NCBI GenBank assembly: GCA_019115225.1
Contig: DXEA01000114.1
Coordinates: 16,165-80,164 of the forward strand
Direction of reading: 5' to 3'
Origin: Candidatus Evtepia faecigallinarum
GTDB taxonomy: Bacteria; Bacillota; Clostridia; Oscillospirales; Oscillospiraceae
Length of the DNA: 64,000 bases
Position numbers and translations under genes: made by a program. Shown here piece by piece: positions 1 through 50,332 of the stretch. Within the stretch, counting starts at the first letter, position 1. Each line of letters opens with the position of its first letter. The notes beneath the pieces were generated by a model that was not told the origin of the DNA, did no database searches, and saw only the letters and a program-made list of their open reading frames with translations.

Positions 1-410
1 GGGAAGTAGCTGGACAGCTCGTTGAGGAACACGTCCCCCGGGGTGATGGTGCGGTAGATGGCCAAGGTCTCCAGCAGGACCACCTTGGGCTTCTGCTTCT
101 CAAAGGCCCGCTCCAGCATGATTTTGCTATACGTGAGTTTTTGGGCACTGGTGGCACAGACGTAGCTGGTGCCCCCGGTCTGCTTCCACAGCAGCAGGGG
201 AGAGACCGAGCGATAGGCCTCGCTGTCCCCGATGACGCACAGGTCGATGGTGTTGGCAGGCTCGCCCAGGATGCCGTTGGCGGCGGCGTGCTCCATGCCC
301 GCCTCTGTGGTGTTGTCCTTGGGCATCACGATCCAGGATACGACCAGCAGCAGCGCCACCATGGCCGCCGCCAGGGCGGCCAGCGCCAGGGCCCGTTTGA
401 AATAAACCAT
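1..410 (-). CDS. SGNH/GDSL-type accessory protein (DltD/AlgJ-like), N-terminal part only; the 3' end runs off the window
   Basis: Absent from the ORF track because it is open at the window edge. Manual minus-strand translation from the ATG at 410-408 gives MVYFKRALALAALAAAMVALLLVVSWIVMPKDNTTEAGMEH...IDLCVIGDSEAYRSVSPLLLW. This is an N-terminal TM anchor followed by a GDS block-I motif. It starts 11 nt after the MBOAT stop. Confidence 0.6.
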   Translation of the reverse strand, partial: MVYFKRALALAALAAAMVALLLVVSWIVMPKDNTTEAGMEHAAANGILGEPANTIDLCVIGDSEAYRSVSPLLLWKQTGGTSYVCATSAQKLTYSKIMLERAFEKQKPKVVLLETLAIYRTITPGDVFLNELSSYF

Positions 411-420
411 AGTGTATCTC

Positions 421-2022
421 CTAAAATCCCGCATAAATGGGGTCCAGGGGCACATATCCGTACCCGTATGCCCCAAACAGGATCACAGCCAGGAGCATGA
501 GGCAGCAGAGCCCATAGTGCGGCAGAATGTATGTTTGCCAAAAGCGGGGACCGGCGGGCTTGCCCCGCTCCCGCACAAGGCTGACCAGAAAGACCACCAC
601 CAGCATGGCGGCCACCATGAGCCAGTCCATCTTGTCCATGCCCATGGTGAAAATGGTTCGGTCGGCCAGGGAGTTCAGGGAGAACTCCCGGATCATCTTC
701 TCAAACATCTCCAGCCCTGCCCGCAGGCCGTTGGCCCGGAAGAAGAGCTCGCCGATGCACACCAGGATGCCGGTGCGCACGATCTGAAAGACCAGATAGG
801 GCTTGTTGGTGGGGGAGATATGGAGTTTCCTCTTCAGGGCCTTGGTGTACGGGCCGGTGAGGTTTGCCAGCAGGATGCAGGCGAAGTGGTACATGCCAAA
901 AAAGAGATAGCTCCAGGCCGCCCCGTGCCACAGGCCGTTGCATACCCACACCAGAAACAGGGCGATGGTCCCGGCCACCAGGGGGCCGAAGTGGTTGCCC
1001 AGGCGCTTGCGGGCCCGGCCGGTGAGCTTTTTCAGGGGGCCGGACATGGACACGGGATAGAAGATATAGTCCTTGAACCAGGCGCCCAGGGTGATGTGCC
1101 AGCGCTGCCAGAACTCCGAGATGGATTTGGAGAAAAAGGGCTGGCGGAAATTCTCGGGCAGCTGGAAGCCCAAAATCTGCCCGGTGCCCACGGCCAGGTC
1201 CATGGTGCCGGAAAAGTCCATGTAGAGCTGGATGGTGTAGCCCACCGCCGCCAGGGCGATGACGAAGCCGTCGTAGTTTTCATACTGGGTGAACACGGTC
1301 TGGATGAACAGGTTCAGCCGGTCGGCCACGATGATCTTTTTCATCAGGCCGAACAGACACCGCTGCAGCCCCAGGGCAAAGTTCCGGCGGCGGATGGGGG
1401 GCGCGCTCCAGATCTGGGGGGCGGTCTGGTCATAGCGGCAGATGGGGCCCTCCATGATCTGGGGAAAGAAGCTCATGTACAGGGCCAGGCGGAGGAGGTT
1501 CCGGTCGGCCTGGATCTTTTGCCGGTGAACATCGAACAGATAGGACATGGCCTGCATGGTGTAGAAGGAGATGCCCATGGGCAGCAGCAGCTTGGGTACC
1601 TCCACCTGCCAGGAGAGGTGGAGCAGCTGGAAGAAGCTGTTGATGTTGACCGCGAAAAAGGGGCTGTATTTCAGCCCCACCAGCACCCCCAACTGCAGCA
1701 GGACGGCAAAGGCCAGCACCTGCCGCTGCCGCCGGCGGGCGGCTGTCCGCAGGGCCCGCCGTTCCTCCTTGGGCGCGGCCTCCAGGGCCTGGGCGGCGGA
1801 GCGCTGCAGATCTGTCAGCCATAAGCCCATGTGGTGCATGGACAGAATGGAAAAGAGCAGATAGAGGAGCAACTTTCCGCTCACCGCCCAGAAGAACAGA
1901 AAGCTCATCCCCAGCAGCACCGCCCGCCGGCCCCGCTGGGGCATCACCCAGTACAGGGCCAGGGCGGCCGGCAGGAAGAGGCCTAAGTAAGCCGCGGAAA
2001 AGTAGGACGACAGGGAGAGCAT
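421..2022 (-). CDS. MBOAT family O-acyltransferase (DltB/AlgI-like), 533 aa
   Basis: Polytopic hydrophobic protein with typical MBOAT sequence (..FYTMQAMSYLFDV.., ..FWQRWHITLGAWFKDYIFYP.. containing the conserved His). Its start lies 2 nt after the carrier-protein stop. Confidence 0.85.
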   Translation of the reverse strand: MLSLSSYFSAAYLGLFLPAALALYWVMPQRGRRAVLLGMSFLFFWAVSGKLLLYLLFSILSMHHMGLWLTDLQRSAAQALEAAPKEERRALRTAARRRQRQVLAFAVLLQLGVLVGLKYSPFFAVNINSFFQLLHLSWQVEVPKLLLPMGISFYTMQAMSYLFDVHRQKIQADRNLLRLALYMSFFPQIMEGPICRYDQTAPQIWSAPPIRRRNFALGLQRCLFGLMKKIIVADRLNLFIQTVFTQYENYDGFVIALAAVGYTIQLYMDFSGTMDLAVGTGQILGFQLPENFRQPFFSKSISEFWQRWHITLGAWFKDYIFYPVSMSGPLKKLTGRARKRLGNHFGPLVAGTIALFLVWVCNGLWHGAAWSYLFFGMYHFACILLANLTGPYTKALKRKLHISPTNKPYLVFQIVRTGILVCIGELFFRANGLRAGLEMFEKMIREFSLNSLADRTIFTMGMDKMDWLMVAAMLVVVFLVSLVRERGKPAGPRFWQTYILPHYGLCCLMLLAVILFGAYGYGYVPLDPIYAGF

Positions 2023-2023
2023 T

Positions 2024-2254
2024 TCACCCGTCCTCGCGCAGCCGCTGGATCAGGTCCCAGAGCCTGGCGGCAGAGTTGAAGTTTTCCGGAACGATCTCTA
2101 CCGTGGGGATGATGATGTCAAAGACCTCTTCCACCTCGGCCACCAGGGCCAGGATGTCTAAGGAGTCGAGGAAATGGCCGTCGATGAGGGTGTCGCAGTG
2201 GTCATAGTCCACGTTGGGCTGGATCTCGCGCAAAATCTCCAAAAGCTGTTCCAT
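2024..2254 (-). CDS. Acyl/D-alanyl carrier protein (DltC-like), 76 aa
   Basis: Small acidic protein with a ..GHFLDSLDILALV.. phosphopantetheine-attachment Ser motif. It sits between the decarboxylase and the MBOAT gene. Confidence 0.8.
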   Translation of the reverse strand: MEQLLEILREIQPNVDYDHCDTLIDGHFLDSLDILALVAEVEEVFDIIIPTVEIVPENFNSAARLWDLIQRLREDG

Positions 2255-2255
2255 G

Positions 2256-3455
2256 TCAGATGTCCTCCTTGGTGTCGTAGTGGGGGGTGTTGAGAAAATG
2301 GATCTGCCGGGCCTGGCGCAGGGTGCGGATCTGTCCGTCCTGCTGGCGCAGCAGGATTTGGGGCAAATCCCGGCTGAGGAAGAGGGCGATGCCCTCGGTC
2401 ATGCAGTAGGCCCCGGCGCGGTCAAAGACCAGCACATCCCCCAGGCGCAGGTCGGGCAGGGGGAGCTGCTTGACCAGCAGGTCGTTGATGGTACACAGGG
2501 CCCCGCAGATGTTCCACTTCTGCAGGGGCTCGCCCTGGCGCAGGGGGAAGGCGGTGACCGGGGGGCGGTGCATGGCCAGGCTCTGGCCGTAATAGACCAG
2601 CTGGTGGATGCCGCCGTCCACGATGGCGTAGTTCTGGCCGCCGTTGGTCTTGCGATCCACCACCTTGGTGACGTAGCGGCCGCAGGTGGCGGCGATGCTC
2701 CGGCCCAGCTCCAGCACGATCTTGCCCCGGTAGTTCATCTGGGCAAACAAGGCGGCGGCCTGGCGGAGGAACGCCTCCTCCTGCTGGGGGTCCGGCCGGT
2801 CAAAGTAGTCGATGGGGAAGCCGGGGCCGAACTCCAGCTCCCCGACGGGGGCGCCCAGGCGCTGGTGGAGATGGGCAAGAAATTCGTCCAGCATACCAAG
2901 CTCCCGGGCCAACCGTTTGAGGGAGGTCTTTTGGGTGCCGGAGAAATACTGGACCCCGCGAATCTCCAAAACCTCACTGTGCCGGTGCAGGGCGAACAGG
3001 TTTTCCAACTCATCCTTTTCCAGGCCGAACTGGTTGCCGCTGGTCAGCCGCAGCAGCAGGGAGAGCTTTTTGCCGGTAACCTGGGCGGCGTGGTGGAGAA
3101 GCTCAAACTGCTGCAAGGACTCCACCGTAAAGATCATCTCCTCCCCCTGCCGGGCCACCAGGTCCTGCAGCCAGGCGGGGTCCTTGTAGACCCCGGAAAT
3201 GACGAACTGACCGGGGGGCAGGTCCAGCTGGTCGCAGATGGCATACTCGCCGGGGGAGCAGAGCTCCAGCCGGGCCACCAGGGGGCTGACCTCCCGGGCC
3301 AGGAAGGGGTTGGCCTTCAGGGCATAGCACAGCTCCACCTGCCCGGGCAGCAGGGTTTGGAGAAACCGGACGCGCTGCTGGAGCTGCCCGGCATCGAAGA
3401 GATAAAAGGGGGTCTGGTGGGTCTGTAGCAGAGAGAGCACTTCCTGTTCAAACAC
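2256..3455 (-). CDS. PLP-dependent decarboxylase, Orn/DAP/Arg decarboxylase family (fold type III), 399 aa
   Basis: N-terminus TPFYLFD...ELCYALKANP (PLP-Lys motif). Also has ..YFSGTQ.. and the C-terminal ..DRAGAYCMTEG.. typical of group IV decarboxylases. It overlaps the adenylase stop by 8 nt. Confidence 0.8.
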   Translation of the reverse strand: MFEQEVLSLLQTHQTPFYLFDAGQLQQRVRFLQTLLPGQVELCYALKANPFLAREVSPLVARLELCSPGEYAICDQLDLPPGQFVISGVYKDPAWLQDLVARQGEEMIFTVESLQQFELLHHAAQVTGKKLSLLLRLTSGNQFGLEKDELENLFALHRHSEVLEIRGVQYFSGTQKTSLKRLARELGMLDEFLAHLHQRLGAPVGELEFGPGFPIDYFDRPDPQQEEAFLRQAAALFAQMNYRGKIVLELGRSIAATCGRYVTKVVDRKTNGGQNYAIVDGGIHQLVYYGQSLAMHRPPVTAFPLRQGEPLQKWNICGALCTINDLLVKQLPLPDLRLGDVLVFDRAGAYCMTEGIALFLSRDLPQILLRQQDGQIRTLRQARQIHFLNTPHYDTKEDI

Positions 3456-4962
3456 GTTCCCATCCTCCTTCCAGCAGCTTGCGGCGGTCGGTCTTTCCGT
3501 TTTTGGTCAGGGGGAAGTCGGGGACCTGGGCCAAGGTGTTGGGGACCATGAAGGCGGGCAGCTGCTCCCGCAGCTGGCTGCGCAGGGCAGTGGCGTCCAT
3601 CTGGCCGATGTAGTAGCCCCGGATCTTCTGCTTTTCCCCATCAAAGATGCAGCAGCACCGCTCCACCTGGGGAAAGGCGGCGATGGCCCGCTCGATCTCT
3701 TCCAGCTCCACCCGGTGGCCCAGGTGCTTGATCTGAAAGTCCTTCCGGCCCCGGTAGAAAAACTCCCCGTCGCGGGAGAGCCGGCCCAGGTCGCCGGTGC
3801 GGTAGATCCGCTGGGGACACTGGGGGGTGCGGGGGTCGGGGAGGAAGGCGGCGGCGGTCTGCTCCGGGGCGTTGTAGTAGCCCAGGGCCAGGGCGGTGCC
3901 CCGGACGCAGATCTCGCCCACCACGTCGGGCTCCCGGATCTCCTGGTCGGCCTCGTCCAGCAGGAAGACCTCCTCGTTGGGGAAGGGCTGGCCGATGGGC
4001 AGGCCCTGGCTGTAGTCCCGCTGCCGGTCCAGGATGTGATAGGTGCAGTTGCAGGTGATCTCCGTGGGGCCGTAGAGGTTGACGAACTGGGCCTGGGGGA
4101 GCTTGTCCATCCACTGGCGCAGATGCTTCAGGGGCATGACCTCACCGCTGAAGAGGACCTTGCGCACCGTCTCCGGCGTGCGGTAGTCCAGGCCGTGGAG
4201 GGTGCTGATGAGGCACAGGGCGGACACGGCCCAGATCATGGTGGTGATCTCCTGCTGGCAGAGGTAGTCCACCAGCTCCTTGGGGCGGGAGAAGAGGCGG
4301 CGGGGCACGATGACCAGGGTGGCCCCGGTTTTGAGACAGGAGTAGATGTCCTTGACGGAGACATCGAAATCAAAGGGGGCCTGGTTGGCCAGCTTATCCT
4401 GGGCCGTCAGGGCGAAAATGTCGGTAAAGGGGTCGATGAAGTCCAGCACCGAGCGGTGGCTGATGACCACCCCCTTGGGTACCCCCGTGGAGCCGGAGGT
4501 GAAGTTGGCGTACAGGGGATCGGTGTCGATCATGCCGGCCCGGATCTCTGCCAGCCGGTCCTCCTCGGGGGAGACGCTGCACAGCTTTTCCACCAACAGG
4601 ATGGCGTGCTGGGGGAAAAGCTGCTCCATGGTCTTTTGGTGGGCCCGGTCGGTGATGACGCAGCGGGCCCCCAGGACGGACTGGATCTGCCTCAGCCGGG
4701 TTTCAGGAAGCTCTGTATTGAAGGAGACATAAAACCCGCCGGCATATACCGTGCCCAAAAACGCGGCCAGGGCGGCCCCGCTCTGCTCCAGGTAGACCGC
4801 CACCGGCTCCCGGGGGGCGATGAAGTAAGACAGCGCCGTGCCGATGCTGCGGGCCAGCTGTTCCAGCTGTTCAAAGCGATAGCTTCTGTGCTCGTCCACG
4901 CAGGCCAGCTTGTCCGGCATGGCAGCGGCGGTTTTCTCCAGATATTGGAGAACGTTATTCAT
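3448..4962 (-). CDS. Amino-acid adenylation enzyme / D-alanine--carrier protein ligase-like (DltA-like), 504 aa
   Basis: ANL superfamily motifs FTSGSTGVPKGV, YGPTE, YRTGDL and the C-terminal ..LTKNGKTDRRKL. The size and single-domain layout match DltA. Confidence 0.85.
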   Translation of the reverse strand: MNNVLQYLEKTAAAMPDKLACVDEHRSYRFEQLEQLARSIGTALSYFIAPREPVAVYLEQSGAALAAFLGTVYAGGFYVSFNTELPETRLRQIQSVLGARCVITDRAHQKTMEQLFPQHAILLVEKLCSVSPEEDRLAEIRAGMIDTDPLYANFTSGSTGVPKGVVISHRSVLDFIDPFTDIFALTAQDKLANQAPFDFDVSVKDIYSCLKTGATLVIVPRRLFSRPKELVDYLCQQEITTMIWAVSALCLISTLHGLDYRTPETVRKVLFSGEVMPLKHLRQWMDKLPQAQFVNLYGPTEITCNCTYHILDRQRDYSQGLPIGQPFPNEEVFLLDEADQEIREPDVVGEICVRGTALALGYYNAPEQTAAAFLPDPRTPQCPQRIYRTGDLGRLSRDGEFFYRGRKDFQIKHLGHRVELEEIERAIAAFPQVERCCCIFDGEKQKIRGYYIGQMDATALRSQLREQLPAFMVPNTLAQVPDFPLTKNGKTDRRKLLEGGWERV

Positions 4963-5008
4963 GGGGAATCACCTGCTTTCTCAGATGGTGCATTGGTCTG
5001 CTGAACTC

Positions 5009-5062
5009 AGGATAGCAGGCACAGCTTAAGGGTTTGCGAATGAATATCTTAACGTTTCTTAA
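5009..5062 (-). promoter_or_regulatory. Tripartite direct-repeat operator plus -10 element upstream of the dlt-like operon
   Basis: The minus strand reads TTAAGAA-acg-TTAAGAT-N16-TTAAGCT-N8-TATCCT. The hexamer ends 46 nt upstream of the ATG at 4962. The spacing is identical to the plus-strand copy at 5270-5323. Confidence 0.6.
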
Positions 5063-5269
5063 AGTCATTTCCCGGCGGGAGAGGGGGGAGAGAACTTTCT
5101 GGATTTTTAAGAATTTCTTCACCGTTTTTTTCGCAAAACCTTATGAAAAAATAGAAACTCTCTGCTAAACTGACTACCAACCACCGTGGTTCTTATCCTG
5201 TTCCTTATCTAAAAAAGGCCGTCCAAACCGTGCCGGCGGGCGCGTTTTTTTGCCAGAAAACTTGGGCAA

Positions 5270-5323
5270 TTAAGAATCGTTAAGAAGTTCCGTCCGGAAG
5301 CATTAAGAAATGGCGGCTAAAAT
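5270..5323 (+). promoter_or_regulatory. Tripartite direct-repeat operator plus -10 element upstream of the lipoprotein-RR-HK operon
   Basis: The plus strand reads TTAAGAA-tcg-TTAAGAA-N16-TTAAGAA-N8-TAAAAT. The first two repeats have 10-bp phasing, typical of OmpR/PhoB-type response regulator sites. Confidence 0.6.
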
Positions 5324-5397
5324 GACGGCCAACAGGAAATCCCCCCCGTCACGGGCGAGGAACCTGAAATCAAACCAAAGGAAAGGAAGTACGAACC

Positions 5398-5781
5398 ATG
5401 ATGCGTACCACTGGAAAGATGAAAACGAAGAACGTGCTGGCCCTGGCCATGGCACTGCTGCTCTCCCTGTCCCTGCTGGCCGGCTGCGGCAGCCAGAAGG
5501 GCAGTGAGGATCAGAAGGACACCCAGCAGACCCAGACCCAGGAAGCTGAGCAGAAGGACAGCAAGCAGCAGGAGAGCAAGGACCAGAAGAAGGACACCGG
5601 CAAGGAGTCCAAGGACGCGAAAGACACCCAGGACGACACCAAAGACAGCAAAGACACCAAGGACACTGAGGACAGCAAGGACACCGCCAAAACCGACACC
5701 GGCAAGGCCAAGGAGAGCAGCAAGAGCACCACTGCCAAGCAGAGCACCTCCGGCAGCCAGCGTACCGGCAAGAAAAGCTGA
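5398..5781 (+). CDS. Lipoprotein with a low-complexity K/D/T/S/Q-rich mature part, 127 aa
   Basis: Signal peptide with lipobox LLAGC (..ALLLSLSLLAGCGSQ..). The remainder is repetitive KDT/KDS/QKD. RBS aaaggaaagga lies upstream. Confidence 0.7.
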   Translation: MMRTTGKMKTKNVLALAMALLLSLSLLAGCGSQKGSEDQKDTQQTQTQEAEQKDSKQQESKDQKKDTGKESKDAKDTQDDTKDSKDTKDTEDSKDTAKTDTGKAKESSKSTTAKQSTSGSQRTGKKS

Positions 5782-5880: not shown

Positions 5881-6606
5881 ATGAATGTGCAGACCATTCT
5901 CATCGTGGACGATGACACCGAGATCCGGGAAGGACTCCGCATCCTTCTCAGCGGCGAAAACTATACGATCCTGGAGGCGGCTGACGGGAAGCAGGCCCTG
6001 GACCAGATGTCGGACACCATCGACCTGGTCATTCTGGACATCATGATGCCCGGCATGTCGGGGCTGCATGTCTGCGAAGAGATCCGCAAGCAGTGGGCCG
6101 TGCCCATCCTCTTCCTCACTGCCAAGGCCCAGGAGTCGGACAAGCTGGTGGGACTCATCGCCGGCGGGGACGACTATTTGCCAAAACCCTTTTCCTATGC
6201 CGAGCTCATGGGCCGGGTCAAGGCCCTGCTGCGCCGTTATTGCGTCTACCGGGGCAAGGCCCAGACCGGGATGCTGAGTCAGGACAACATCCTCACCACC
6301 CGGGGCCTGAAGCTCAGCCTGGATTACAACCAGGTGTGGGTGAGGGGACAGGAGGTGGAGCTGACAGAGCTGGAGTACAAGATCCTGCGCCTGCTCATGC
6401 AGAACCCCCAGCGGGTCTTTTCCACCCAGAATATCTATGAGAGCGTTTGGGGCGAGCCCTATTTTTACATTTCCAACGGCACCGTCATGGTGCACATCCG
6501 CAAGCTGCGGGTGAAGATCGAGGAGGACCCGCAGAACCCCCGCTATCTGAAAACCGTATGGGGAAAGGGGTATCGTTTTGAAGTCAGTGCAGACCAAGAG
6601 CCGTAA
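5881..6606 (+). CDS. OmpR/PhoB-family response regulator, 241 aa
   Basis: Receiver domain (ILIVDDD..., LVILDIMMPGMSG, ..FLTAK.., DDYLPKPF) plus a winged-helix C-terminus (..LTELEYKILRLLM.., ..YLKTVWGKGYRF). Confidence 0.9.
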   Translation: MNVQTILIVDDDTEIREGLRILLSGENYTILEAADGKQALDQMSDTIDLVILDIMMPGMSGLHVCEEIRKQWAVPILFLTAKAQESDKLVGLIAGGDDYLPKPFSYAELMGRVKALLRRYCVYRGKAQTGMLSQDNILTTRGLKLSLDYNQVWVRGQEVELTELEYKILRLLMQNPQRVFSTQNIYESVWGEPYFYISNGTVMVHIRKLRVKIEEDPQNPRYLKTVWGKGYRFEVSADQEP

Positions 6607-7903
6607 GCCCAGCAGTCTCACCGCCCAGTTTGCGGGGCTGCTGTGTCTGGCCAGCCTGGCCGGTGTGGTGCTCTTTTTCCTCCTGCGCACCGGTGGGGAT
6701 ACCCTGATCCGCAGCTATTTTTACCACTCCAATTTCCAGCAGCGCTATGTGGAGCACAAAATCGAATCCCTCCAGCAGTATGTGATAGAGAACGACCTGA
6801 CCGCCCAGGATGCCGACGGGCTGAACCAGTGGGTCAGAAAGACCCCCCTTACCCTCATGGCGGTCTACCGGGACAACATCCTGCTCTATGCCTCCTCCGC
6901 GCCGGAGCAGGCCGTTGCTGGGGAGAGTGAGGCGGAGACCCCGTATTATGATTGGGTGTCCTACTATACCGTCACCTTTGCCGACGGGGAGGCAGAGGTG
7001 GTCCTGTATACCGGCAGCACCTATCTGTGGTTTACCTACCTGACCATCGTCAGCCTGCTGCTGTCCTTCCTGTTCTTCCTGGCCATCATCACCGTCAAGA
7101 GCAGGGGGCTGGTGCGGTACATCGGCCAGCTCAGCGATCAGATCCAGGCCATGGAGGGGGGCGACCTGGACCAGGCCATCCTCATCCAGGGCAACAACGA
7201 GCTCTCCCGGCTGGCCCAGGGCCTGGACGCCATGCGCCAGTCCTTCAAGGAGCAGACGGAGCGGGAAAAGGCCATTTTCCGGGCCAACCAGACCATGATC
7301 ACCCAGATGTCCCACGACCTGCGCACCCCCCTGACCGCCTTGCAGATCTATACCGATATCCTCCGCTACCGGAAGTTTGCCGACCGGGGCCAGAGCGATG
7401 AGTATCTGAACAAAATCGACACCAAGGTGGCCCAGATCAAGCAGCTGTCGGAAAACATTTTTGAATACTCCTTAGTCTCCGGCGTCCAGCAGATCGACTT
7501 AGAGCCTCCCCGCCCCGTGCGGGACGTGTTCCACGATACCCTGTCGGAGATGGTGGCCTATCTGGACCAGCACGGCTTTACCTTTGCCCTGGACCTGGAC
7601 TGGCCCCACCGGCAGATCGCCGTCTATCCCCAATACATCAAGCGGCTCATGGACAACGTCATCTCCAACATCACCAAATACGCCCAGCCGGCTGTGCCTG
7701 TGCGCATTGGGGTGAAGGACGAGGGGGAGACCGTCTGCCTGTCCTTTGCCAACGCCATCCGGCCGGACAGCTCCCAGCAGGACAGCAACCGCATCGGCCT
7801 GTCCAACATGCGGGCCATGATGGGCCGCATGGAAGGGGAGCTGCAGGTGTGCAGTGAAGATGGGACCTTTTCGGTCACCCTCTGTTTTCCTGCACGGTGC
7901 TGA
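6578..7903 (+). CDS. Sensor histidine kinase (2 TM, HAMP, HisKA, HATPase), 441 aa
   Basis: TTG start 7 nt after gggaaagggg; overlaps the RR gene by 29 nt. H-box MSHDLRTPLTAL. There are two hydrophobic segments flanking a loop of about 110 aa. C-terminal ATPase motifs (..NITKYA.., ..GLSNMRAMM..). Confidence 0.85.
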   Translation: MKSVQTKSRKPSSLTAQFAGLLCLASLAGVVLFFLLRTGGDTLIRSYFYHSNFQQRYVEHKIESLQQYVIENDLTAQDADGLNQWVRKTPLTLMAVYRDNILLYASSAPEQAVAGESEAETPYYDWVSYYTVTFADGEAEVVLYTGSTYLWFTYLTIVSLLLSFLFFLAIITVKSRGLVRYIGQLSDQIQAMEGGDLDQAILIQGNNELSRLAQGLDAMRQSFKEQTEREKAIFRANQTMITQMSHDLRTPLTALQIYTDILRYRKFADRGQSDEYLNKIDTKVAQIKQLSENIFEYSLVSGVQQIDLEPPRPVRDVFHDTLSEMVAYLDQHGFTFALDLDWPHRQIAVYPQYIKRLMDNVISNITKYAQPAVPVRIGVKDEGETVCLSFANAIRPDSSQQDSNRIGLSNMRAMMGRMEGELQVCSEDGTFSVTLCFPARC

Positions 7904-14670: not shown

Positions 14671-17118
14671 ATGCTTTCAGAAGAAAAACAGACTCGCTTT
14701 GCTAACCTGCGCCGCCAGCTCATCGCCCGGGAGTTTTCCAACATGAACCCCCGGCAGCTGGAGGGGGTCCTGGCCACGGAAGGCCCCCTGCTGCTGCTGG
14801 CCGGGGCGGGCAGCGGAAAGACCACGGTGCTCATCCACCGCATCGCCAACCTCCTGCGCTATGGCCGGGGCTCGGACAGCCGGGAGATCCCGGACTATGT
14901 GACCGAGGAAGATCTGGCCTTTTTGGAAGAGTATGCCCGGGACCCGGACCCCGCCCCCCAGGCGGACAGCCGGGCCAGACTCCTGTGCGCCCTGGAGCCC
15001 GCCGCCCCCTGGCAGGTGATCGCCATCACCTTTACCAACAAGGCCGCCGGGGAACTCAAGCAGCGTTTGGAGGACAAGATCGGCCCCGAGGCACGGGACG
15101 TGTGGGCGGCCACCTTCCACTCGGCCTGCGTGCGTATCCTGCGGCGGTATATTGAACAGCTGGGCTATCCCTCCTCGTTTACCATTTACGACACCGATGA
15201 CTCCCTGCGGGTCATCAAGGAGTCTTTGAAGGAACTGAACATGGACGACAAGTCCTTCCCGCCCCGGGCCGTCCTGAGTACCATCTCCCGGGCCAAGGAC
15301 GAGATGCTCCTGGCCCAGGATTTCCTGGACCAGAGCCGGGCGAAGGGGGATTACCGCCAGCAGAAGATCGCCAACGTCTATCTGGCTTATGAGAAAAAGC
15401 TCCGGGCGGCGGGGGCGCTGGATTTTGATGACATCATCCTGCACACCGTCCGCCTGCTCCAGCAGTTCCCCGAAGCCCGGGAGTATTATCAGAACAAGTT
15501 CCGCTACGTCCTCATCGACGAGTATCAGGACACCAATCACCTGCAATACCTCCTGGCCGCCCTGCTGGCCGGGGGGCGGAAGAACATCTGCGTGGTGGGC
15601 GACGACGACCAGTCCATCTACCGCTTCCGGGGGGCCACCATCGAAAACATCCTCTCCTTTGAGCAGGAGTATCAGAATGCCCGGGTCATCCGGCTGGAGC
15701 AGAACTACCGCTCCACCGGCAATATCCTGGCCGCGGCCAACGGGGTCATTCGCAACAACCGGGGCCGGAAGGGCAAAAAGCTGTGGACCGACCACGGGGA
15801 AGGGGAGAAGGTCTATTTCTACACCGCCGGCAGCGAGCGGGAGGAAGGGTTATATGTGGCCACCCAGCTGCTGCGGGCCTATGGCGAGGGGAGACAGTGG
15901 CGGGACTGCGCCGTCCTGTACCGGATGAACGCCCTGTCCAATCAGATCGAAATGGCACTGAAAAGCAACAGCATCCCCTACCGGGTGGTGGGGGGCTTCC
16001 GCTTCTTCGAGCGGGCGGAGATCAAGGACATGCTCTCCTATCTCTGCGTCATCCACAACCCCCAGGACGACCTGCGCCTGCTGCGGGTGGTGAACAATCC
16101 CCCCCGGGGCATCGGCGCCAAGACCATGGAGACCGCCCGGACCATCGCCGTCCAGGAGGGCCGCAGCCTGTGGGACATCCTCACCAACGCCGCCCAGATC
16201 CCCGCCCTGCAGCGGGCAGCCCCCAAGTTCCAAAAGTTTGTGGACCTGATCCAGGCCATGCAGCGCCTGGCCCAGGAGGCCGACCTGCCGGAGTTTTACG
16301 AAACCCTCATCCAGGAGAGCGGTTATGCCGCCATGCTCTCGGAGAAAAAGGACAACGAGAGCAAGTCCCGCCTGGAGAACATCCACGAGCTGTCCTCCTC
16401 CATCAGCGGCTATTTGGAAAACGCAGAGGAACCCACCCTGGGGGGCTTCCTGGACGAAGTTGCCCTGTACACCGACCTGGACAGCGTGGAGGACGGGGAC
16501 AACTGCGTCACCCTCATGACCATGCACGCGGCCAAGGGGTTGGAGTTTCCCATCGTCTTTTCCGTGGGCATGGAGGAGGGGGTTTTCCCCGGCTACCGTG
16601 CCATCGGGGAGGAGGAAGAGCTGGAAGAGGAGCGCCGCCTGTGCTATGTGGCCCTGACCCGGGCCAAGGAGCGGCTCTATCTCACCTGTGCTGCCCAGCG
16701 GATGCTCTTCGGCCGCACCTCGGCAAACCTCCCCTCCCGGTTCGTCCAGGAGATCCCCCCGGAGCATTTGCAGGCCGGCGGCCGGGTCCGCCAGCCCCGG
16801 CGGGAGATCATTCAGGACAACGACTGGTCCACCGAAGAGCGGTTCTCTCAGCTCCGGCAGCCGGTCTCCCGGTCCCAGATGCCCCGGCCCTCGGGCACCC
16901 GCGCCGCCCCGGCGGCCTATCGCCAGCCTGCCCCCAAGGCAAAACCCCTCATGCAGCTGCGAAAGGGGGAGGTGGTCCGCCACGCCGCCTTCGGTACCGG
17001 CATGGTGCTGTCCATCCAGCCCATGGGCGGGGATGCCCTCATCGAGGTGGCCTTTGACAACGTGGGCACCAAGCGGATGATGCTCAAAGCGGCCTCCCAA
17101 TTTATGACCAAGCTGTGA
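14671..17118 (+). CDS. pcrA: ATP-dependent DNA helicase PcrA/UvrD family, 815 aa
   Basis: ..LLLLAGAGSGKTTVL.. (motif I), ..VLIDEYQDTN.., ..QNYRST.., ..TMHAAKGLEFP.., ..RRLCYVALTRAKERLYL.. Confidence 0.9.
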   Translation: MLSEEKQTRFANLRRQLIAREFSNMNPRQLEGVLATEGPLLLLAGAGSGKTTVLIHRIANLLRYGRGSDSREIPDYVTEEDLAFLEEYARDPDPAPQADSRARLLCALEPAAPWQVIAITFTNKAAGELKQRLEDKIGPEARDVWAATFHSACVRILRRYIEQLGYPSSFTIYDTDDSLRVIKESLKELNMDDKSFPPRAVLSTISRAKDEMLLAQDFLDQSRAKGDYRQQKIANVYLAYEKKLRAAGALDFDDIILHTVRLLQQFPEAREYYQNKFRYVLIDEYQDTNHLQYLLAALLAGGRKNICVVGDDDQSIYRFRGATIENILSFEQEYQNARVIRLEQNYRSTGNILAAANGVIRNNRGRKGKKLWTDHGEGEKVYFYTAGSEREEGLYVATQLLRAYGEGRQWRDCAVLYRMNALSNQIEMALKSNSIPYRVVGGFRFFERAEIKDMLSYLCVIHNPQDDLRLLRVVNNPPRGIGAKTMETARTIAVQEGRSLWDILTNAAQIPALQRAAPKFQKFVDLIQAMQRLAQEADLPEFYETLIQESGYAAMLSEKKDNESKSRLENIHELSSSISGYLENAEEPTLGGFLDEVALYTDLDSVEDGDNCVTLMTMHAAKGLEFPIVFSVGMEEGVFPGYRAIGEEEELEEERRLCYVALTRAKERLYLTCAAQRMLFGRTSANLPSRFVQEIPPEHLQAGGRVRQPRREIIQDNDWSTEERFSQLRQPVSRSQMPRPSGTRAAPAAYRQPAPKAKPLMQLRKGEVVRHAAFGTGMVLSIQPMGGDALIEVAFDNVGTKRMMLKAASQFMTKL

Positions 17119-48098: not shown

Positions 48099-48259
48099 TA
48101 TCAAGTGAACATTTGTCCCCTTCCCAAACACAGGCAGCGGCAGGGCAGACAAAATTCAACTTATTATAGTACACATGCCACCGGCTTTTCAACTCTTTTT
48201 TCCGGTGTTGGGGGAAGAGCTTGGTTTGGCAATTTCACAACGATCAGGAGGTCCTTCTC

Positions 48260-49345
48260 ATGAAAAAGTATGCTGTGGGTGTGGTGGGTGCCACCGGAAT
48301 GGTGGGCCAGCGGTTTGTGACCCTGTTGGAAAACCATCCCTGGTTCCAGCTGACCGTGGTGGCGGCCAGTGCCCGCTCCGCCGGGAAAACCTATGAAGAG
48401 GCCGTGGGCCCCCGCTGGGCCATGCCCACCCCCATGCCCCAGGAGGCCAAGTCCCTGGTGGTCCTGGATGCCCAGGGCGACATGGAGAAGGTGGCAGCTG
48501 CCGTGGACTTCATCTTCTGCGCCGTAGACATGAAAAAGGAGGACATCCGGGCCCTGGAAGAGGCCTATGCCAAGCTGGACTGCCCCGTCATCTCCAACAA
48601 CAGCGCCCACCGCTGGACCCCCGACGTGCCCATGGTCATCCCCGAGGTCAACCCCGAGCACCTGAAGGTTATCCCCGCCCAGCAGGCCCGCCTGGGCACC
48701 AAGCGGGGCTTCATCGCCGTCAAGTCCAACTGCTCCATCCAGTCCTACGCCCCCGCCCTGCACCCCCTGCGGGCCTTTGGCATCAAAGAGGTCCTGGTGT
48801 GTACCTACCAGGCTATCTCCGGAGCGGGCAAGACCTTTGCCACCTGGCCGGAGATGGTGGACAACGTAATCCCCTACATCGGCGGCGAGGAGGAGAAGTC
48901 GGAGAAGGAACCCTTAAAGGTCTGGGGCACCGTGGAAAACGGCCAGATCGTGACGGCCTCCTCCCCCTCCATCACCGCCCAGTGCCTGCGGGTCCCCGTC
49001 TCCGACGGCCACACCGCCGCGGTCTTTGTCTCCTTTGAAAAAAAGCCCACCGAGGAGGAGATCAAGACCCTGTGGAAGAACTTCCAGGGCCGGGCCCAGG
49101 AGCTGGAGCTGCCCAGCGCCCCCAAGCAGTTCCTCCACTACTTTGAGGAAAACGACCGGCCCCAGCCCAAGCTGGACCGGGACCTGGAGGGCGGCATGGC
49201 CGTCACCCTGGGCCGTCTGCGGCCCGACACTCAGTACGACTACAAGTTCGTGGGCCTGTCCCACAACACCCTGCGCGGCGCGGCCGGCGGCGGCGTTCTG
49301 CTGGCTGAGCTGCTGTGCGCGGAGGGGTATATCCTCCCCCGCTAA
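48260..49345 (+). CDS. asd: Aspartate-semialdehyde dehydrogenase, 361 aa
   Basis: MKKYAVGVVGATGMVGQRF.., active-site ..SNCSIQ.., ..YQAISGAG.. RBS aggagg. Confidence 0.9.
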   Translation: MKKYAVGVVGATGMVGQRFVTLLENHPWFQLTVVAASARSAGKTYEEAVGPRWAMPTPMPQEAKSLVVLDAQGDMEKVAAAVDFIFCAVDMKKEDIRALEEAYAKLDCPVISNNSAHRWTPDVPMVIPEVNPEHLKVIPAQQARLGTKRGFIAVKSNCSIQSYAPALHPLRAFGIKEVLVCTYQAISGAGKTFATWPEMVDNVIPYIGGEEEKSEKEPLKVWGTVENGQIVTASSPSITAQCLRVPVSDGHTAAVFVSFEKKPTEEEIKTLWKNFQGRAQELELPSAPKQFLHYFEENDRPQPKLDRDLEGGMAVTLGRLRPDTQYDYKFVGLSHNTLRGAAGGGVLLAELLCAEGYILPR

Positions 49346-49444: not shown

Positions 49445-50332
49445 ATGAAAACACCTGTCTTTACCGGCACCTGCACCGCCCTCATCACCCCCTTCCAGTC
49501 CTCCGGGAGCATCGACTACGCCGCCTTTGACCGGCAGATCGACCGCCAGCTGGAGTCCGGCGTGGACGCCCTGTGCGTCTGCGGCACCACCGGCGAGAGC
49601 TCTGCCCTCACCGTCCAGGAGCACGTGCGCCTGGTGGACCACTGCGTCTCCCATGTGGCCGGGCGGTGCAAGGTGGTGGCGGGCTCCGGCAGCAACGACA
49701 CCGCCGCCGCCCTCTACCTGTGCCAGAAGGCCCAGGACGCCGGGGCGGACGCCCTGCTGCTGGTGACCCCCTATTACAACAAGACCACCCAGACCGGCCT
49801 CATCCACCACTATGAGTACTTAGCCGATCAGCTGGACCTGCCCATCATCCTCTACAACGTCCCCTCCCGCACGGGCCTCTCCTTCACCGCCGAGACCTAC
49901 CGCATTCTCAGTCAGCACCCCCGCATCAACGGCACCAAGGAGGCCTCTGGGAACTTCTCCCTCCTGGCCGAGACCATGGCCTTCTGCGGCGATGAGCTCA
50001 ACGTCTGGTCGGGCAACGACGACCAGACCCTCCCCATGCTGGCCCTGGGGGCCAAGGGGCTCATCTCCGTGGTCTCCAACCTGGTGCCGGAGCCCATGGC
50101 CGAGCTCACCCACAGCTACTTCCGGGGAGAGACAGAGCAGGCCAGAGAGCTCCAGCTCTCCTACCTGCCCCTGATGAATGTCCTCTTCTCCCAGGTCAAC
50201 CCCATCCCCATCAAGGCCGCCATGGCCGCCCTGGGGCTGGACAGCGGCATCCTCCGCCAGCCTCTCTGGACCATGGACCCCATTCCCCGAAAAGCACTCT
50301 TGGATACCCTGAGCGCCTTTGAGCTGCTCTGA
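49445..50332 (+). CDS. dapA: 4-hydroxy-tetrahydrodipicolinate synthase, 295 aa
   Basis: ..GTCTALITPF.., ..VCGTTGES.., ..VTPYYNK.., ..ILYNVPSRTG.., ..GTKEASG.. Confidence 0.9.
   Translation: MKTPVFTGTCTALITPFQSSGSIDYAAFDRQIDRQLESGVDALCVCGTTGESSALTVQEHVRLVDHCVSHVAGRCKVVAGSGSNDTAAALYLCQKAQDAGADALLLVTPYYNKTTQTGLIHHYEYLADQLDLPIILYNVPSRTGLSFTAETYRILSQHPRINGTKEASGNFSLLAETMAFCGDELNVWSGNDDQTLPMLALGAKGLISVVSNLVPEPMAELTHSYFRGETEQARELQLSYLPLMNVLFSQVNPIPIKAAMAALGLDSGILRQPLWTMDPIPRKALLDTLSAFELL

Follow-up and report, generated by a model that had tools for sequence, protein, structure and literature searches.

The 64-kb window studied here (the whole stretch of 64,000 nucleotides, positions 16,165 to 80,164 of the forward strand of contig DXEA01000114.1 in assembly GCA_019115225.1 of Candidatus Evtepia faecigallinarum) opens with a compact minus-strand cassette of five genes that recalls the dlt operon, which D-alanylates teichoic acids, but includes a pyridoxal-phosphate (PLP) decarboxylase. 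In the order of transcription, the cassette encodes a 504-aa adenylase (positions 3448-4962), a 399-aa PLP decarboxylase with a GTG start (2256-3455) that overlaps the adenylase stop by 8 nt, a 76-aa carrier protein (2024-2254) after a 1-nt gap, a 533-aa MBOAT protein (421-2022) after a further 1-nt gap, and, beyond a 10-nt gap, an SGNH-fold protein whose ATG lies at 410-408 and whose N-terminal 136 of 316 codons (1-410) are within the window before the gene runs past its left edge. The full fifth gene (316 aa) was read from ENA contig L001 (L001:11613-12563), where the MBOAT protein is identical to that of the window. Two of the gene junctions are overlaps or abutments, and a Shine-Dalgarno-like GGAGG/AGGAG stands ahead of each downstream start, in or directly past the preceding gene. 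A terminator/promoter scan found no credible terminator between the cassette genes; the consensus matches within coding sequence were at chance level, and the minus strand showed no convincing sigma-70 promoter. No second LysA and no dlt paralogue occur within the 64 kb, and there was no plasmid match for the locus. A first-pass annotation made from the letters alone had described five back-to-back minus-strand genes with small gaps or overlaps, as borne out by the spacings given above, and its adenylase, Orn/DAP/Arg-family decarboxylase and MBOAT calls all scored above Pfam/NCBIfam cut-offs.

The arrangement is far from peculiar to this genome. A scan for relatives of the decarboxylase, using one genome per species, returned at least 581 loci, the best 80 of which were examined for gene order. 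All five genes were present in 75 of these, four of the five incomplete loci being cut by a contig end, and the survey that the first-pass annotation had called for gave the same layout (one strand, order adenylase-decarboxylase-carrier-MBOAT-SGNH) in 73 of the 75 complete loci, with tight packing kept in 71 of the loci. The best 80 loci come from Oscillospiraceae, Lachnospiraceae, Acetobacterium, Streptococcus suis, and Eggerthellaceae/Gordonibacter, and the cassette recurs in two phyla and at GC contents between 26% and 63%, which strongly indicates that its five products act together. The decarboxylase gene, lying between the adenylase and carrier genes in these 73 loci from several families and two phyla, is an integral part of the cassette, and its conservation across two phyla disfavours the chance insertion of a housekeeping gene.

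Some loci depart from this layout. In L071 and L081 the order is rearranged, while L058 has large gaps. In L048, the adenylase, decarboxylase, and carrier genes are followed by 2.9 kb without MBOAT or SGNH, and this trio may be coupled to another downstream partner.

The adenylase passes the general amino-acid adenylation model (TIGR01733 AA-adenyl-dom, 342.8 bits, cut-off 317.4) and has the core motifs SGSTG, YGPTE, and NGK (the A10 Lys), but falls short of both DltA models (TIGR01734, 295.3 bits, cut-off 559.85; NF003417, 299.2 bits, cut-off 476), with 30-33% identity to DltA of Bacillus subtilis and B. cereus. It also aligns end to end with the exosortase-A associated ligase model TIGR03098, at 206.4 bits and under the cut-off of 592. 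When its pocket was aligned with the B. subtilis and B. cereus DltA and GrsA-PheA sequences taken from PDB alignments, the specificity code read D-V-K-I-L-S-L-C-N-K, as against D-L-M-T-M/L-C-T-V-A-K in DltA; eight of the nine variable positions differ, including DltA Cys269, which is Ser here, and a Met replaced by Lys, so that, as had been suspected, this is not a D-Ala pocket. Among 78-79 adenylase orthologues, D235, V236, K239, and S301 never vary, C330 and N331 rarely do, and position 278 is mostly Ile. On these sequence grounds, the enzyme is a stand-alone adenylase of DltA-like architecture whose specificity pocket is not that of DltA. A domains that activate Glu, and those that activate iso-linked MeAsp, Asp, or Glu, typically have a cationic residue at position 239, and the Asp235/Lys239 pair would fit a substrate that retains both an ammonium and a carboxylate group. 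If the adenylated species still has its carboxylate, decarboxylation would follow loading. A bare amine, which the first-pass annotation had allowed for, cannot be the adenylated species.

The decarboxylase passes both of its Pfam models (PF02784, 41.9 bits; PF00278, 58.0 bits; cut-offs ~23) and fails the LysA model TIGR01048 (147.5 bits, cut-off 297.9); its top NCBIfam match, TIGR03099 dCO2ase_PEP1, is also under cut-off (160.0 bits, cut-off 478). Orthologues retain the PLP-binding Lys47, Cys321 of the catalytic loop, and the GAY motif without change, with the other catalytic motifs fixed or almost fixed, and on this evidence the protein is probably a working enzyme. In diaminopimelate decarboxylase (DAPDC), an Arg of the specificity helix binds the distal carboxylate of diaminopimelate (DAP) and an acidic residue beside the catalytic Cys binds its distal amine (PMC7857480). 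Here, the Arg of the LysA L-I-R-P motif aligns with Tyr288, and C-E-[ST]-G-D has become C-T-I-N-D; Thr322 is invariant, and the residue at position 288 is kept in at least 95% of the 81 orthologues compared. In its motifs YFSGTQ and C-T-x-N-D, the enzyme comes nearer to BtrK (VYTGTQ, CTPED), with which it shares an aromatic residue in place of His and the Cys-Thr pair, than to LysA (HIGSQ, CE[ST]GD), and a family profile run against the PDB scored 154 bits with BtrK, 144 bits with the best DAPDC, and 139 bits with SbnH, the sequence identity to BtrK being ~23%. Judged by its motifs and scores, the protein is an alanine-racemase-fold PLP enzyme of the DAPDC/BtrK/SbnH clade and not LysA; the view that it is no housekeeping LysA thus holds, the score being under the LysA cut-off and both the DAP-specific Arg and the acidic residue beside the Cys being lost. 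In the AlphaFold model of the enzyme, the only low-confidence stretches within the fold are residues 284-294, 321-324, and 354-361 (window ~2372-2605, minus strand), that is, the specificity helix, the catalytic Cys loop, and the segment past GAY, which would contact substrate or carrier.

These results bear directly on the simplest alternative, namely that a divergent dlt operon carries out ordinary D-alanylation of teichoic acid and happens to harbour an inserted housekeeping lysA. The overall architecture of adenylase, carrier, MBOAT, and SGNH protein agrees with it, DltA and DltB rank high among the named NCBIfam matches, and the window holds, elsewhere on its plus strand, open reading frames (ORFs) that resemble by their N-terminal sequences aspartate-semialdehyde dehydrogenase (asd, 48221-49345) and dihydrodipicolinate synthase (dapA, 49445-50332), while no lysA adjoins these or occurs elsewhere in the 64 kb. 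Nevertheless, all Dlt equivalog cut-offs are missed widely, the pocket has other residues than DltA at eight of its nine variable positions (with Ser for Cys269 and Lys for Met among the changes), the decarboxylase has neither a LysA-level score nor the DAP-binding residues, and an insertion conserved over families and two phyla is unexpected for a chance event. We regard this explanation as very improbable.

The carrier protein matches PP-binding_2, DltC, and ACP models weakly, in each case under cut-off (NF003464 DltC, 24.7 bits, cut-off 68). It has the phosphopantetheine site generic to carriers, with Ser31 in a D-S-L sequence, and L-x-S-L-x-I is conserved in 77 orthologues. The MBOAT protein passes PF03062 (66.7 bits, cut-off 27) and matches TIGR04091 DltB over residues 116-428 only (164.2 bits, cut-off 375, thus failed); His309 and His366 are invariant in orthologues. 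C-terminal to this DltB-like core (~116-428) lie extra hydrophobic segments at residues 465-483 and 499-517, and the protein ends in the hexapeptide P-I-Y-A-G-F (window 424-441, minus strand), an acyl-shuttle motif of the FxYxxF type known from DltX and PatA. The pattern P-[I/M/L]-Y-A-x-F, with Pro and not Phe at its first position, is the exact MBOAT C-terminus in 75 of 75 complete orthologues, and no separate DltX-like micro-ORF was found in the locus. The Tyr of the FxYxxF motif carries the acyl group from the MBOAT protein to its SGNH partner, as proven for DltX and PatA, and the motif resides on the microprotein DltX in Dlt systems but is fused to the MBOAT protein, past two extra helices, in PatA and AlgI (PMC12148441). 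By analogy of sequence, the MBOAT C-terminus is an acyl-shuttle motif of extracytoplasmic type, a DltX in effect fused to the MBOAT protein. This would account for the length of 533 aa, which the first-pass annotation had rightly flagged as exceeding that of a typical DltB: two added C-terminal transmembrane helices carry the fused DltX-type motif.

The fifth protein has a single N-terminal transmembrane helix (residues 10-28), and G61-D62-S63 and D264-x-G-x-H268 are invariant among its homologues. Sequence searches gave no significant Pfam, NCBIfam, or PDB match and no DltD match in Pfam/NCBIfam even at E = 10; a homology search with the truncated 136-aa fragment returned fragments only, and the named database homologues are all called 'hypothetical protein', none with a Pfam domain. 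An AlphaFold (AF2) model made with database homologues (predicted local distance difference test (pLDDT) 86.6) matched TesA in Foldseek at E 1.5e-6 and probability 1.0, together with many GDSL esterases, and no DltD-described entry was among the top 50 structural matches. The earlier call of a transmembrane-anchored SGNH protein with a GDS motif was therefore not confirmable by sequence and was confirmed by structure, and the model indicates that this is a membrane-anchored SGNH transferase candidate and not a recognisable DltD.

Set beside known systems, the cassette shares with DltXABCD a stand-alone adenylase, a small carrier, an MBOAT protein, an anchored extracytoplasmic SGNH protein, a Tyr shuttle hexapeptide, and a link to envelope-stress two-component regulation. 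It differs in having a PLP decarboxylase, in its order (A-decarboxylase-C-B-D as opposed to X-A-B-C-D), in scores under the Dlt equivalog cut-offs, in a non-DltA pocket, in a shuttle fused to the MBOAT protein past two transmembrane helices, and in an SGNH protein without detectable sequence similarity to DltD. The only Dlt traits present are generic ones, namely the MBOAT family, the SGNH fold, the carrier Ser, and the shuttle motif; the claim that this is not a canonical dlt operon stands, the DltA, DltB, and DltC cut-offs being missed, with no DltD-family match and no separate DltX.

Closer parallels for the first three genes come from natural-product pathways. The BtrI/BtrJ/BtrK system also combines a carrier with an alanine-racemase-fold decarboxylase, the latter with shared active-site motifs; BtrJ, however, is an ATP-grasp ligase and not an adenylation domain, and the butirosin product enters a cytoplasmic antibiotic pathway and not MBOAT-SGNH export. 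In butirosin biosynthesis, the alpha-carboxylate of carrier-bound gamma-glutamate is removed to give the gamma-aminobutyryl (GABA) thioester GABA-S-carrier, and this happens only after loading (PMC7857480). VinN/VinL/VinO offer the identical triad of adenylation enzyme, stand-alone carrier, and PLP decarboxylase, likened here by description and not by sequence, and 3-methyl-Asp is decarboxylated there only after thioesterification, yielding 3-aminoisobutyryl-S-carrier (PMC11284099). Unlike the cassette, the Vin triad belongs to an actinomycete polyketide pathway, in which a second adenylase and an acyltransferase feed the polyketide synthase. FlvN/L/O are a further macrolactam starter-unit triad of this type.

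For the export half, the nearest relatives in design are PatA/PatB, AlgI/AlgJ/AlgX, and WssH, in which an MBOAT protein with two extra C-terminal transmembrane helices and an FxYxxF-type motif works with a separate SGNH partner; PatA of Neisseria gonorrhoeae ends in FIYANF (PMC12148441), the cassette MBOAT protein in PIYAGF. These fused-motif MBOAT-SGNH O-acetyltransferases use acetyl-CoA, and their lack of carrier proteins is put down to the use of acyl-CoA (PMC12148441), whereas the cassette has a dedicated adenylase, carrier, and decarboxylase. With a fused shuttle plus a carrier-protein donor, the cassette is thus a hybrid of two known MBOAT-SGNH designs. Lastly, the exosortase-A (PEP-CTERM) pair TIGR03098/TIGR03099 likewise places an AMP-ligase beside a DAPDC-like decarboxylase, in exopolysaccharide loci, but that pair is proteobacterial and functionally uncharacterised, and the cassette scores far under its cut-offs and lacks an exosortase.

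From the gene content, synteny, catalytic residues, folds, and motifs observed, we infer the substrate, product, step order, acceptor, and regulation as follows. The cassette would carry out a carrier-dependent MBOAT-SGNH acylation of the envelope, Dlt-like but with another aminoacyl group that is decarboxylated on the carrier, a reading to which we assign a probability of roughly one half. In the first step, the adenylase would activate an amino acid with a second anionic group, most likely Asp or Glu via the side-chain carboxyl, and load it as a thioester on the carrier. Because an alpha-decarboxylase needs a free alpha-amino group and alpha-carboxylate, the substrate would have to be attached via its other carboxyl (the beta of Asp, the gamma of Glu, or the far end of DAP). 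The BtrK/VinO-like PLP enzyme would then strip the free alpha-carboxylate on the carrier, leaving a thioester of the beta-alanyl or gamma-aminobutyryl type. The MBOAT protein would carry this acyl group through the membrane and hand it to the Tyr of its P-I-Y-A-G-F motif, from which the SGNH Ser would take it to esterify an extracytoplasmic acceptor, such as a teichoic-acid-like polymer, a wall polysaccharide, or a tethered protein. The neighbouring two-component system of VanRS-like type probably governs expression via TTCTTAA boxes, and the outcome would be an inducible, charge-modifying envelope defence.

Several observations weigh against this reading. The lead of BtrK is small, at 154 versus 144 bits for DAPDC with the profile and 94 versus 97 bits with the single sequence, and the decarboxylase model (pLDDT 80) has SbnH, DAPDC, and BtrK as near-equal structural neighbours (template-modelling score ~0.8), which gives no discrimination among them. 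Nor would membership of the clade imply action on a carrier, given that SbnH, FigC, and LysA use free small molecules. Neither a decarboxylase-carrier nor an adenylase-decarboxylase fusion was found, the apparent long ORFs being overlaps or artefacts. Lys239 is also seen in alpha-activating Glu domains, and Asp or Glu linked through its alpha-carboxyl would offer the decarboxylase no alpha-carboxylate. The two-component system adjoins the cassette in no more than about half of the loci, there is no glycosyltransferase or teichoic-acid gene among the conserved cassette neighbours, and no description of the cassette or of its gene combination was found in the searchable literature.

Part of this evidence bears on the timing of decarboxylation, since the same machinery could be supplied by a decarboxylase that makes a free amino acid (beta-Ala, GABA, Lys, or a D-amino acid) whose product the adenylase then loads. 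The DAPDC/BtrK/SbnH clade includes enzymes that decarboxylate conjugated amino-acid moieties, namely citryl conjugates, a microcin intermediate, and, in BtrK, carrier-bound glutamate, but LysA, SbnH, FigC, and D-Orn/Lys decarboxylase act on free molecules, as do most characterised members (PMC7857480). The top structural neighbours SbnH and DAPDC and the lack of fusion proteins also speak for a free metabolite. On the other hand, the invariant Asp235 and Lys239 of the adenylase suggest a substrate with an amine and a free anionic group, thus not yet decarboxylated, and BtrK is the best profile match of the decarboxylase. In addition, A domains that activate beta-Ala have the Asp shifted to position 236, which is not seen in this adenylase, and common amino acids such as Lys would need no dedicated supply enzyme fixed in 73 of 75 loci. 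We therefore hold the free-metabolite route to be possible though rather unlikely. Of the two roles that the first-pass annotation had left side by side, generating the substrate or editing it, editing of the carried substrate is favoured by the BtrK and VinO precedents and generation less so; by that analogy, action on a carrier-bound substrate is the favoured role of the decarboxylase.

A variant retains decarboxylation on the carrier and changes the substrate: meso- or LL-DAP would be loaded by one end and its distal centre decarboxylated to a lysyl-carrier, ending in a lysyl ester on the envelope. The decarboxylase is a close relative of DAPDC, the replacement of the Arg by Tyr288 fits a distal carboxyl tied up as a thioester, and Lys239 of the adenylase could bind the far carboxylate of DAP. 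Yet the residue that should bind the distal amine is a Thr here, as it is in BtrK, an enzyme whose substrate lacks the distal amine, while DAP retains it; moreover, free L-Lys is abundant and directly loadable. We consider this variant doubtful, more so than the free-metabolite route, and return to an Asp- or Glu-derived group decarboxylated on the carrier as the reading we prefer.

Upstream of the cassette, a divergent promoter region of 435 bp (4963-5397, no strand assigned) separates the adenylase gene from a plus-strand unit that encodes a 127-aa lipoprotein with the lipobox LLAGC (5398-5781), a 241-aa OmpR/VanR-type response regulator with Pfam Response_reg and Trans_reg_C domains (5881-6606), and a 441-aa sensor histidine kinase with two transmembrane helices, HAMP, HisKA, and HATPase domains, and an extracytoplasmic loop of ~118 aa (6578-7903). 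The lipoprotein gene leads this unit, and all three genes are transcribed divergently from the cassette. The best NCBIfam match of the regulator is VanR-ABDEGLN, under cut-off (232 bits, cut-off 350). In ~35 of 76 loci, a homologous regulator-kinase pair adjoins the cassette, in most cases on its upstream side; in the further lineages represented by L082-L085, such pairs lie directly upstream on the same strand. The intergenic region holds TTCTTAA/TTAAGAA boxes at 5056-5062, 5107-5113, 5270-5276, 5280-5286, and 5303-5309, which are five of the seven TTCTTAA heptamers of the whole window, with one pair 10 bp apart; none of 100 shuffles reached seven matches. The two-component system beside shared motifs, as first noted, is thus real in both its parts. 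Many orthologous loci, S. suis included, also have TTAAGAA/TTAAG repeats ~100 nt ahead of the adenylase start (L002-L014, L023, L031, L035, L036, L038, L047, L049, L059, L062, and L063; window 5047-5309). The boxes form a candidate operator for the VanR-like regulator, and we take the TTCTTAA box to resemble VanR-binding sites, as a lead only. A strict TTAAG-N6-TTAAG operator was tried and rejected: it occurred in 19 of 72 loci against ~2 expected, but missed the 10-bp-spaced boxes of the window and did not track kinase adjacency. No riboswitch or T-box leader was indicated, there being no Rfam match in the 435-bp upstream region.

The lipoprotein is relevant to the question of the acceptor. 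Its mature part (98 residues) is wholly disordered and rich in K, D, T, S, and Q, with 29 Ser+Thr, 21 Lys, 22 Asp+Glu, no hydrophobic residues, and repeats such as KDT, SKD, and KKxSS. Similar lipoproteins with the lipobox L-[LA]-[AT]-G-C lie near the cassette or the two-component system in nine other loci from at least four lineages (L084:4645-5127, L047:2603-3010, L052:1898-2284, L033:5971-6444, L053:272-733, L070/L079:5980-6444, L076:4091-4453, and L080:6073-6444). They precede the regulator-kinase pair, except in Agathobaculum, where the lipoprotein gene shares the strand of the adenylase gene and lies 43 nt upstream of it. The protein may be a sensor accessory or a tethered, hydroxyl-rich acceptor, the acceptor role being the more speculative. 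If the acceptor were this disordered Ser/Thr/Lys-rich lipoprotein, or another protein or a lipid, the cassette would be a system for protein or lipid O-aminoacylation. The recurrence beside the cassette or two-component system in the window and the nine further loci, the placement in Agathobaculum, and the absence of glycopolymer genes among the conserved neighbours agree with such a role. Against it, only ~10 of the 70 loci with sufficient upstream sequence have the lipoprotein, lipoproteins of such low complexity are frequent in Firmicutes, the protein is equally linked to the two-component system and so is possibly a sensor accessory, and the characterised bacterial MBOAT-SGNH pairs modify envelope polymers (teichoic acid, peptidoglycan, alginate, and cellulose; PMC12148441). 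A protein or lipid acceptor therefore seems unlikely to us, about as doubtful as the diaminopimelate variant.

The wider surroundings vary among loci. Beyond the left window edge, L001:12867-15356 holds a second regulator-kinase pair, after the SGNH gene and on the same strand, plus a 215-aa protein without Pfam match, and a second two-component system lies downstream of the cassette in L082 and L083. A fusion of ABC_tran and FtsX domains (1004 aa; L084:13162-16176) is directly downstream of the cassette in L084, and a beta-lactamase/PBP-family gene is near it in L082 (L082:17891-19185). By analogy, the ABC/FtsX and beta-lactamase-family contexts are reminiscent of modules for antimicrobial-peptide defence or resistance.

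Dlt-type D-alanylation is the textbook example of surface-charge tuning in Gram-positive bacteria, contributes to resistance to defensins and cationic antibiotics, and is a drug target. The cassette described here suggests a second, chemically different route of aminoacylation in at least several hundred species, most of its carriers being abundant, poorly studied gut Oscillospiraceae and Lachnospiraceae. To our knowledge, carrier-protein donors have so far been seen only in Dlt and fused acyl-Tyr-shuttle MBOAT proteins only in acetyl-CoA systems. The cassette also brings on-carrier decarboxylation, familiar from the natural products butirosin and vicenistatin, into envelope biology. In its most specific and quite unlikely form, which we rate only slightly above the diaminopimelate variant, the proposal would place a hitherto undescribed cationic omega-aminoacyl ester of the beta-alanyl or GABA type, formed by decarboxylation of a carrier-bound acidic amino acid, on the envelopes of many gut Clostridia, some streptococci, and Eggerthellaceae, with a disordered lipoprotein as the acceptor in some lineages; if this were true, the disordered Ser/Thr/Lys-rich lipoprotein would be a protein analogue of lipoteichoic acid. 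If the proposed pathway holds, it would assign a function to the SGNH partner now listed as 'hypothetical' and to a family annotated 'diaminopimelate decarboxylase family', and it would represent a new modification of the envelope, with possible effects on resistance to antimicrobial peptides, recognition by the immune system, and colonisation by these commensals.

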